Shown here: one piece after another, positions 56,134 to 56,557 of the stretch
How the letters are laid out: each line of letters starts with the position of its first letter
Position numbering within the stretch: the stretch's first letter is position 1
DNA from: Escherichia phage VB-EcoM-WM
DNA length: 64,000 nucleotides
Sequence record: PQ014731.1
Strand: one strand, 5' to 3'
The notes under the pieces: model-generated
Seen by the model: the letters and a program-made list of their open reading frames with translations, nothing else
What the model was told of the DNA's origin: nothing
Database searches by the model: none
Program-made: the position numbers and the translations under genes

Positions 56134-56557
56134 CTCCGCGTAGCTCAGCTTGGTAGAGATAATCAAAGATGCACAAATGCAGTCGTTGTGGGGAAGAAGA
56201 TCCATGTAAATTTTATGGTCATAAAAAGACTATATGCGGGAAATGTCACAATGAGTACACCATGAATCTTGGGAGGCAGAAACGACAGTATGCTGTAGAC
56301 AAGTTAGGCGGTAAATGTATCAATTGTGGGTTCGATAAATGGATTGTTTCTTTAGATATTCACCATTTAGACCCTAAAATTAAAGACTCTAAATTTGCTC
56401 AAATGAGAGGTTGGAGTCTGCAAAGAATTGATAATGAAATTAAAAACTGTGTATTACTTTGTAGAAATTGTCATGCTGCCGTACATGCAGGACTTTTAGA
56501 ACTCCCATAACTTTGGGATCAGGAGGTCGAGTGTTCGAATCACTCCGTGGAGACCAC
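56134..56557 (+). pseudogene. tRNA gene interrupted by an HNH endonuclease ORF
   Basis: 5' part CTCCGCG-TA-GCTCAGCTTGGTAGAG at 56134-56159; 3' part T-arm GAGTG-TTCGAAT-CACTC plus CGTGGAG-A-CCA at 56529-56557; acceptor halves complementary; no anticodon arm reconstructable. Confidence 0.5.
56169..56510 (+). CDS. HNH endonuclease (113 aa)
   Basis: Zinc-finger CxxC pairs and HHLDPK...NCVLLCRNCHAAVH HNH motif. Confidence 0.7.
   Translation: MHKCSRCGEEDPCKFYGHKKTICGKCHNEYTMNLGRQKRQYAVDKLGGKCINCGFDKWIVSLDIHHLDPKIKDSKFAQMRGWSLQRIDNEIKNCVLLCRNCHAAVHAGLLELP

Follow-up and report, generated by a model that had tools for sequence, protein, structure and literature searches.

Evidence for an HNH homing-endonuclease cassette in place of part of the tRNA-Pro(UGG) gene of an rV5-like Escherichia coli phage

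Why does a gene for an HNH endonuclease lie between the two ends of a tRNA gene in Escherichia phage VB-EcoM-WM, and can a tRNA still be made from that gene? We approached these questions computationally, using a 64,000-nucleotide stretch of the phage DNA (record PQ014731.1), which we refer to as the window. A preliminary description, made from the letters of the window alone, had left two readings side by side, namely a homing-endonuclease insertion that disrupted a tRNA and an unusually compact intron. We compared the locus with its counterparts in related phages, examined 7,200 possible splices of the split gene, and placed the HNH protein within its family in order to weigh these readings against each other and against two others.

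Anatomy of the split tRNA-Pro gene and its empty counterpart

The source phage is an rV5-like phage of E. coli in the genus Vequintavirus, and positions 55300 to 57700 of the window match dozens of such genomes at 96 to 99% identity. Within this region lies a cluster of tRNA genes (Table 1), with the split tRNA-Pro gene beginning 11 nt past tRNA-Met and the spanin and large-terminase genes found downstream of the cluster. The best sigma-70-like match ahead of the cluster (TTGACA-17-TAATAT), which is a match to consensus only, is a candidate promoter for a transcript carrying both the tRNAs and the HNH gene. A hairpin with a T-run can be seen in the sequence at about 56925 to 56959, and the terminator scan did not list it.

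Table 1. Features of the split tRNA-Pro locus and of the region upstream of it (window coordinates)
Feature	Position	Strand	Basis or remark
Candidate promoter, best sigma-70-like match	55312..55340	+	Consensus match only; ahead of the tRNA cluster
Co-oriented tRNA cluster (Arg, Tyr, Ser, an odd 99-nt tRNA, Thr, Met)	55399..56122	+	tRNA scans
5' fragment of tRNA-Pro(UGG), 25 nt	56134..56158	+	Equals nt 1-25 of the intact tRNA-Pro in B9-1 and FFH2
Cassette leader, 10 nt, ATAATCAAAG	56159..56168	+	Between the tRNA break and the start codon
HNH endonuclease ORF, 342 nt, 113 aa	56169..56510	+	Profile matches and family alignment
Lone cassette base, C	56511	+	Separates the stop codon from the kept anticodon loop; A in the native tRNA
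3' fragment of tRNA-Pro(UGG), 45 nt	56512..56556	+	Equals nt 33-77 of the intact tRNA-Pro in B9-1 and FFH2

The 5' fragment reads CTCCGCG (acceptor 5' strand), TA (U8 and A9), GCTC (D-stem 5' strand), AGCTTGGTA (D loop), and GAG, the first three of the four bases of the D-stem 3' strand. The 3' fragment opens with TTTGGGA, which is the anticodon loop with the anticodon TGG, and continues through TCAGG (anticodon-stem 3' strand), the variable loop AGGTC, the T arm (GAGTG, TTCGAAT, and CACTC), the acceptor 3' strand CGTGGAG, the discriminator A, and an encoded CCA. The two acceptor strands form six Watson-Crick pairs and one G-T pair, exactly as first described. The same description had assigned an acceptor strand and D-arm to 56134 to 56159, which is indeed a tRNA fragment whose end we now place one base earlier, and a T-arm, acceptor strand, and CCA to 56529 to 56557; these elements are all present, but the fragment that carries them starts 17 nt before the point given, and the CCA stops at 56556. 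It had further stated that no anticodon arm could be built, which is true because one strand of the stem, the 5' strand, has been deleted. However, it had overlooked the anticodon loop and the 3' strand of the stem, which are kept at 56512 to 56523 and which identify the gene as tRNA-Pro(UGG).

The whole cassette measures 353 bp (56159 to 56511), and its sequence that is neither coding nor tRNA comes to 11 nt, with 10 nt lying 5' of the open reading frame (ORF) and a single nucleotide lying 3' of it. We did not find a clear Shine-Dalgarno sequence in the 10-nt leader (56159 to 56168). The split gene was called neither by ARAGORN nor by Rfam. We considered a closing stem between TCAAAG (56163 to 56168) and CTTTGG (56511 to 56516) as a stand-in for the anticodon stem and rejected it; the pairing is absent in L094, the closest relative at 85% identity, and is thus probably due to chance. 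The last 11 nt of the HNH ORF, ACTCCCATAAC, resemble the 5' end of tRNA-Pro, ACTCCGCGTAGC, and in both L094 and Salmonella phage Arash the stop codon falls within a TAGC that resembles tRNA positions 8 to 11. This likeness hints that the cassette may once have terminated in the 5' end of a tRNA.

Two related phages, B9-1 (L001, 1035 to 1111) and FFH2 (L002, 1036 to 1112), have an uninterrupted and annotated 77-nt tRNA-Pro(TGG) gene at the same place, without the ORF. This comparison with relatives lacking the HNH gene, suggested in the preliminary description, demonstrates that the two halves are the ends of one tRNA-Pro gene and do not match it by chance. The intact gene reads CTCCGCGTAGCTCAGCTTGGTAGAG-CGCCTGA-TTTGGGATCAGGAGGTCGAGTGTTCGAATCACTCCGTGGAGACCA, and both fragments in the window are identical to its ends. 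The 353-bp cassette stands where the intact gene has the 7 nt CGCCTGA, which span the final D-stem base, position 26, and the entire 5' strand of the anticodon stem; the event was therefore a replacement and not a clean insertion. Putting CGCCTGA back in silico restored a perfect cloverleaf. Counting as locus-bearing those records that hold the 3' tRNA fragment plus the downstream gene (n = 117), we found tRNA-Pro intact, at 77 nt, in approximately 104 of the related Vequintavirus records. The cassette was present in the window and in 13 phage records, those of navn and YP-6 among them, with inserts 99.2 to 99.7% identical, and with 13 filled loci among approximately 117, about one genome in nine is filled. 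The cassette is a presence/absence polymorphism within Vequintavirus.

Whether the interrupted gene could still yield a tRNA was examined by joining each 5' end point from 56150 to 56229 to each 3' start point from 56440 to 56529, for a total of 7,200 joins. ARAGORN called a tRNA-Pro(TGG) in two of the 7,200, and the one of these two that we inspected had two mismatches in the 5-bp anticodon stem as well as a broken D stem. Run in its intron mode on the split gene, ARAGORN found nothing. A permissive Rfam scan of 54500 to 57200 (E ≤ 5) found the neighboring tRNAs and no group I or group II intron family. Given that 7 nt of the mature sequence are missing from the filled allele, no excision can restore the tRNA. 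From its sequence, then, the tRNA-Pro gene of the window must be regarded as inactivated, and no RNA processing would be able to regenerate its anticodon stem.

Recurrent split tRNAs and the wider HNH family

The arrangement in the window is one of several. In an independent search, we looked for orphan D-arm and orphan T-arm motifs flanking members of the HNH family and recovered eight distinct and independent split cases (the window, L094, L097, L101, L098-100, L032/34, L051, and L057). Every one of the eight has 7/7 acceptor pairs and an intact T stem, and in the seven found beyond the window the acceptor stem is different in each case and perfectly complementary. Without exception, the left break lies within GGTAG(AG) of the D arm, and the anticodon stem lacks its 5' strand. 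The closest relative, homologue P0002 of L094 (85% amino acid identity), is located on an unrelated 44-kb contig, where the locus reads CACTGCA, TA, GCTC, AGTCTGGTA, and GAGC, followed by 7 nt, the ORF, a C, and then TTTGGGA, GCAGA, GGGTC, TTAGG, TTCAAAT, CCTAA, TGTGGTG, A, and CCA. The tRNA-Pro gene interrupted there differs from that of the window in its acceptor and T stems and was broken at the same two points, such that the window and L094 have in common the left junction GGTAGAG and a right junction made of the stop codon, a C, and TTTGGGA. At L032 and L098, the halves of the victim enclose first an intact tRNA that matches the victim in isotype (Ala in L032 and Pro in L098) and has a deviant D arm, and then the HNH gene. 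These replacement tRNAs look as expected for cleavage-resistant alleles carried by the element. We also encountered orphan single tRNA halves (L056, L073-75, and L081/82).

Beyond the split cases, the family as a whole is found next to tRNA genes. A locus search of IMG/VR with the single protein gave only five relatives, at approximately 60% identity, and an alignment-based search was needed; the latter confirmed 494 relatives and returned 80 loci. A tRNA gene lay within 1.2 kb in 79 of these 80 sampled viral loci, and in 46 of them the HNH gene abuts a tRNA on the same strand. In 32 of the 80, the match ends 8 nt or less from an intact same-strand tRNA-Pro(TGG), and in those tRNA-Pro-abutting loci that we inspected, the ORF overlaps approximately the first 15 nt of the tRNA. 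Another 14 loci abut a different tRNA (Ile, Arg, Ala, Val, Leu, Asn, Gln, or Ser). Cultured phages display the same proximity. The unannotated homologue in Salmonella phage Arash ends inside an intact tRNA-Pro, where its stop codon TAG is U8-A9-G10 of the tRNA, and the homologue in Salmonella phage 7t3 stops 8 nt short of a tRNA-Asn. Yersinia phage fHe-Yen9-03 has a homologue downstream of two tRNA-Pro genes and a tRNA-Val gene, and in a Phapecoctavirus a homologue lies between tRNA-Pro and tRNA-Ile. Looking for depletion of the canonical D-arm motif, we found it in 4 of 29 intact HNH-adjacent tRNAs versus 20 of 149 in the background; the same comparison made within tRNA-Pro alone was suggestive and is confounded by shared ancestry. 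Judging from these positions, this is a large phage HNH family that is specialized on tRNA genes, with members that lie within these genes at the same position, that directly adjoin their 5' ends, or that come with a replacement tRNA.

Origin of the cassette

The ORF that had been called an HNH gene from its sequence was upheld by matches to the Pfam HNH profile PF01844 (E value of 4.9e-5 and 23.8 bits, against a curated cut-off of 21.4) and to phrog_2255, annotated as "HNH endonuclease" (E value of 5e-27). A search with the protein gave 150 relatives below an E value of 1e-5, and the 120 matches listed all had E < 1e-33; a sequence search of solved structures produced no meaningful match to the HNH protein. 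The 113-amino-acid (aa) protein combines an N-terminal CxxC...CxxC zinc ribbon with an HNH (beta-beta-alpha-metal) domain, in which the zinc site consists of CxxC pairs and the active site of His, Asn, and His, all of them conserved in the window protein. Every residue that is invariant in a 45-sequence family alignment is kept (C4, C7, C23, C26, C50, C53, H65, H66, C98, C101, H102, and H106), and so is the nearly invariant N100. The ORF is intact in all 14 alleles, and the four polymorphic sites among seven of these alleles are all synonymous, with no nonsynonymous change. Given that all invariant Cys and His residues are kept and that the changes are exclusively synonymous, the gene is likely active. 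Most relatives are 160 to 175 aa long and have an extra N-terminal helix-turn-helix domain of approximately 55 aa. The window protein falls in a "short form" clade of 112 to 122 aa without this domain, the absence of which could reduce DNA specificity or even activity.

We aligned the flanks of seven filled and six empty alleles. In the right flank, the window shares 98.8% identity with the empty B9-1 allele and only 93.4 to 94.7% with the six other filled alleles, and the insert remains 99.2 to 99.7% identical among phages whose flanks differ by 5 to 7%. With a flank that matches the empty haplotype and a nearly identical insert, the window reveals the same insert on clearly different backgrounds, and the switch between haplotypes occurs about 50 to 115 nt from the insert. 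One filled allele (A147) has a G>A change at 56523, in the anticodon-stem strand that has lost its pairing partner. The mosaic flanks fit homing with short co-conversion tracts, and they could likewise be the product of homologous recombination of the ordinary sort, a frequent process in these phages that needs no help from the endonuclease. Taken with the empty alleles and the presence of the cassette in 13 of approximately 117 records, this near identity of the insert on varied flanking haplotypes supports the first of the two readings in the preliminary description.

Our preferred reading, to which we assign a probability of about 0.78, is that a free-standing HNH homing-endonuclease cassette invaded tRNA-Pro(UGG) and replaced 7 nt of it. 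Under this model, the enzyme would be translated from the tRNA-cluster transcript and, during a mixed infection with a cassette-free phage, would cut or nick the intact tRNA-Pro of the latter close to where the D arm meets the anticodon arm. The cut or nick is predicted to fall within or beside GGTAGAGCGCCTGATTTGGG of the empty allele, a target in the D arm and anticodon stem that we infer solely from the positions of the junctions. The break would then be repaired from the cassette-bearing genome, by which the ORF would be copied in and the target sequence deleted, and this deletion would make the carrier immune to its own enzyme. Loss of the tRNA may be tolerated because phage tRNA genes are dispensable. 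A broader proposition, which we hold as doubtful, is that a dedicated and widespread guild of HNH enzymes targets the conserved D-arm/anticodon-stem DNA of tRNA genes, either sacrificing the tRNA, as in the window, or bringing a cleavage-resistant replacement, as in L032 and L098, and is a main force behind the turnover and diversification of phage tRNA repertoires. In the split form, the kept acceptor and T arms would turn the endonuclease mRNA into a natural tRNA-scaffold RNA that RNase P and the 3' processing enzymes excise and stabilize.

Could the retained tRNA ends have acquired a function of their own? RNase P requires only the acceptor/T-arm helix, and engineered tRNA scaffolds in which the anticodon arm has been replaced are processed and stable in E. 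coli. The acceptor and T arms of the split gene might serve as a handle that lets RNase P and the 3' enzymes excise the HNH mRNA cleanly from the transcript of the tRNA operon, that stabilizes or regulates it, or both. The predicted fold of 56134 to 56556 keeps the acceptor stem and the T arm in both the minimum-free-energy and the centroid structures, the full acceptor pairing and intact T stems extend to all eight split lineages, and a coupling between RNA processing and the control of endonuclease mRNAs from tRNA clusters has been put forward for SegB and the T5 enzymes (PMC2330249). Perfect halves, however, are equally expected after a recent insertion into functional tRNAs: the halves in the window are identical to the empty allele and so have had no time to decay, and detection depends on recognizable arms, such that decayed split cases would be missed. 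The z-score of the fold is unremarkable (-1.8), orphan single halves exist as well, and most members of the family have no split tRNA at all. We therefore consider a functional tRNA handle unlikely.

Another possibility is that the cassette is a dead relic, in which a truncated endonuclease gene has lost its DNA-binding domain, is immobile, and is shuffled among phages by general recombination. The protein is indeed a 113-aa short form set against helix-turn-helix relatives of 160 to 175 aa, its gene has no obvious Shine-Dalgarno sequence, and the mosaic flanks are compatible with ordinary recombination. A relic would be hard to reconcile, though, with an ORF that is intact in 14 alleles and differs at four synonymous sites and no nonsynonymous ones, or with the retention of every invariant catalytic residue and zinc ligand. 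Members of the short-form clade (69 to 85% identity) also occupy new tRNA sites in L094, L097, L101, L098, Arash, and Phapecoctavirus, and their presence in unrelated contigs implies that the short form has continued to move. Inactivity of this kind is highly improbable in our judgment.

We reject the remaining reading, that the insert is spliced out as an intron (a compact or unusual element of the group I type, some other self-splicing element, or one removed by a host or phage enzyme) and that tRNA-Pro is still made, as having next to no chance: both tRNA ends are perfectly kept down to the complementary acceptor stem and encoded CCA, the split layout recurs in seven other lineages, and group I introns do occur in bacterial tRNA genes, some with HNH genes (PMC13011429), but a strand of the anticodon stem has been replaced in the mature sequence, none of the 7,200 joins gives a credible tRNA, and neither Rfam nor ARAGORN detects an intron signature. 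The "unusually compact intron" of the preliminary description thus fails, as no intron family was matched and no working splice was found by the intron-model analysis that it had proposed. Rfam likewise returned no intron family in the seven other split loci at E ≤ 0.5. The non-coding part of the insert is limited to 11 nt, and the anticodon loop has also been lost in L097 and L101; bacterial tRNA group I introns, by comparison, are found in the anticodon loop, and those with an endonuclease gene are more than 500 bp long (PMC13011429).

Relation to known systems

The tRNA-Pro of the window phage has neither been lost nor diverged; it has been cut in two by what we take to be a selfish gene, which explains why gene finders count one tRNA less here than in most of the relatives. 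The usual view is that homing endonucleases persist by residing harmlessly in introns, inteins, or intergenic DNA. Members of the present family have repeatedly entered tRNA genes, at the price of the tRNA or with a spare one brought along, which amounts to a different strategy for dealing with the cost. The junctions suggest that homing can target a further conserved tRNA motif besides the T arm that is used by SegB, and if our assignment of the target is correct, enzymes of 113 aa recognize a sequence that occurs in tRNA genes across many organisms. Phage tRNA clusters are reshuffled rapidly, which has been linked to escape from bacterial defenses that cleave tRNAs (PMC13096335), and the family could be part of the explanation for this reshuffling.

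Several known systems resemble this locus in part. Like the group I introns of bacterial tRNA genes, the cassette places an endonuclease gene inside a tRNA gene whose two exon ends are both kept (PMC13011429). Those introns, however, sit at positions 33/34 to 37/38, possess a ribozyme core, and splice themselves out precisely (PMC13011429), whereas the window cassette has no such core, has deleted 7 nt of exon, and has 11 nt of non-coding sequence. The "genes in pieces" left by free-standing homing endonucleases provide a second parallel. In Aeromonas phage Aeh1, for example, nrdA is split by the free-standing gene mobE without any intron or intein; in such protein genes, both pieces are expressed and come together as a functional enzyme. 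There, as here, the insertion of a free-standing endonuclease left two flanking gene fragments. The difference is that the split product in the window is an RNA and that the host gene is sacrificed; the split tRNA-Pro cannot reassemble because part of it has been deleted.

[quoted passage not shown] 2004, as cited in PMC2330249). In T5, hegC, hegD, and T5.069 extend into the 5' end of the tRNA that follows, and the gene beside hegD, tRNA-Gln2, is flagged as a pseudogene. They share with the window cassette an HNH gene embedded in a phage tRNA cluster. In contrast, the T5 genes lie between or against tRNAs, and none is reported inside a tRNA of which both halves are kept. Their sequence relationship to the present family is distant; tblastn finds hegA alone, with an E value of 5e-5 across the HNH motif, and hegA reaches 10.6 bits against the family profile. 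HNH homing genes have been noted more generally in the tRNA clusters of many lytic phages (PMC10194208).

The most instructive comparison is with SegB, a free-standing GIY-YIG homing endonuclease encoded in the tRNA cluster of T4, the activity of which has been demonstrated experimentally (PMC2330249). Its 27-bp site includes the conserved tRNA T-psi-C motif GGTTCRANTCC, and by cleaving the tRNA genes of related phages that lack it, SegB drives the preferential inheritance of itself and of neighboring tRNA genes (PMC2330249). Processing of tRNAs was proposed to trim the segB and T5 endonuclease mRNAs and, given that the segB reading frame stops where the 5' end of a tRNA lies, is thought to limit the expression of SegB (PMC2330249). 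The present family resembles SegB in that it is made up of free-standing endonuclease genes systematically linked to tRNAs, here within a phage tRNA cluster, and most of its ORFs likewise run into the 5' end of a tRNA, so that the mRNA-trimming idea fits them too. The two differ in fold, GIY-YIG versus HNH, such that the present family does not belong to the Seg family and behaves analogously to it. They also differ in placement and in apparent target: segB lies between tRNA genes, whereas the window cassette splits one, and SegB targets the T arm, whereas the breaks described here fall between the D arm and the anticodon arm and point to an endonuclease activity that we infer. We found no description of an HNH gene inside a phage tRNA gene in the literature that we searched, where such an absence is not proof of novelty. 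In general terms, the element itself belongs to a known kind, the free-standing HNH homing-endonuclease genes, and a specialist in SegB or the T5 enzymes would see it as a neat extension and not as a surprise; what is unusual is the habit of its family of landing at a fixed position within tRNA genes.

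Sequences at the two ends of the HNH genes

In the window, the final 11 nt of the HNH ORF and the base that follows them (ACTCCCATAAC, 56500-56511) are similar to the 5' end of tRNA-Pro (ACTCCGCGTAGC, 56133-56145). In the contig of the closest relative of the HNH protein (L094) and in Salmonella phage Arash, the HNH stop codon lies within a TAGC that corresponds to tRNA positions 8-11, and in the group formed by the family members P0005, P0006 and P0008, the end of the ORF, CTTGGTAG/A, is similar to the D loop.

Upstream of the HNH ORFs, a hairpin of the form (T)GGTAGA-N9-TCTACC was present in all 12 distinct sequences from the IMG/VR contigs, with one G-T change in L019. 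The GGTAGA of this hairpin is the D-arm sequence at which the split tRNAs break. Possible explanations for the hairpin are a remnant of the 5' half of a tRNA, a role in the control of translation, and a contribution to the homology on which homing relies.

Coordinates of tRNA-associated features in the window and in the loci compared
Feature	Record	Position	Remark
tRNA-like gene, 99 nt	window	55868-55966	ARAGORN and Rfam
Cassette with intact tRNA and HNH gene	L032	892-1580	
Cassette with intact tRNA and HNH gene	L098	860-1412	
Conserved hairpin	L014-L045	~10-40 nt upstream of HNH start codon	ends at start codon
127-bp insertion region	L004 (phage 241Ecol014PP)	375-505	window counterpart ~55474-55477
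127-bp insertion region	L110 (phage 10C2)	372-504	window counterpart ~55474-55477
ORF-tRNA overlap	L111 (phage T5)	1345-1979	
ORF-tRNA overlap	L111 (phage T5)	2943-3607	
ORF-tRNA overlap	L111 (phage T5)	5953-6525	

Spare and atypical tRNA genes

The cassettes at two loci, L032 and L098, are flanked by the 5' and 3' halves of the resident tRNA and carry a tRNA of the same isotype (Ala or Pro), which is intact with a deviant D arm. The spare tRNA appears to travel with the endonuclease in both. Just downstream of the tRNA cluster on L094, a metagenomic phage contig, Rfam reported a near-threshold "tmRNA_permuted" match at 2083-2318 (44 bits versus a gathering score of 47; E 5e-6).

The tRNA-like gene in the upstream cluster of the window was labeled "tRNA-???" by ARAGORN, with a 4-nt anticodon, and scored 37.5 bits against the Rfam tRNA model, which placed 26 inserted nt in the variable region and gave the anticodon loop as UUUUUAA. 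This gene is kept in relatives, where it is annotated as tRNA-OTHER or not at all.

Variation among Vequintaviruses

Window positions 55100-57900 form a mosaic, in which the left flank shares 99.8% identity with YP-6, a filled phage, and the right flank 98.8% with B9-1, an empty one. No phage collection record matched the window insert at 100%. In some Vequintaviruses, an insertion of 127 bp separates tRNA-Arg from a diverged tRNA-Tyr, for which ARAGORN made no call in L004.

The filled-allele count is inflated by GenBank MG0656xx records named "Campylobacter phage" (UNVERIFIED; n = 18, e.g., L104-L106), 10 of which carry the HNH insert. Over the locus, these records share 96-97% identity with E. 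coli Vequintaviruses, and their host label is probably wrong or due to contamination.

Open reading frames running into tRNA genes in phage T5

The layout in which an ORF runs into a tRNA is shared by the HNH family and by hegD, hegC and T5.069 in phage T5 (NC_005859). There, each overlap lies at the 5' end of the tRNA: hegD overlaps tRNA-Gln2, which carries a pseudogene flag, while hegC and ORF T5.069 overlap tRNA-Ser2 and tRNA-Asn, respectively.
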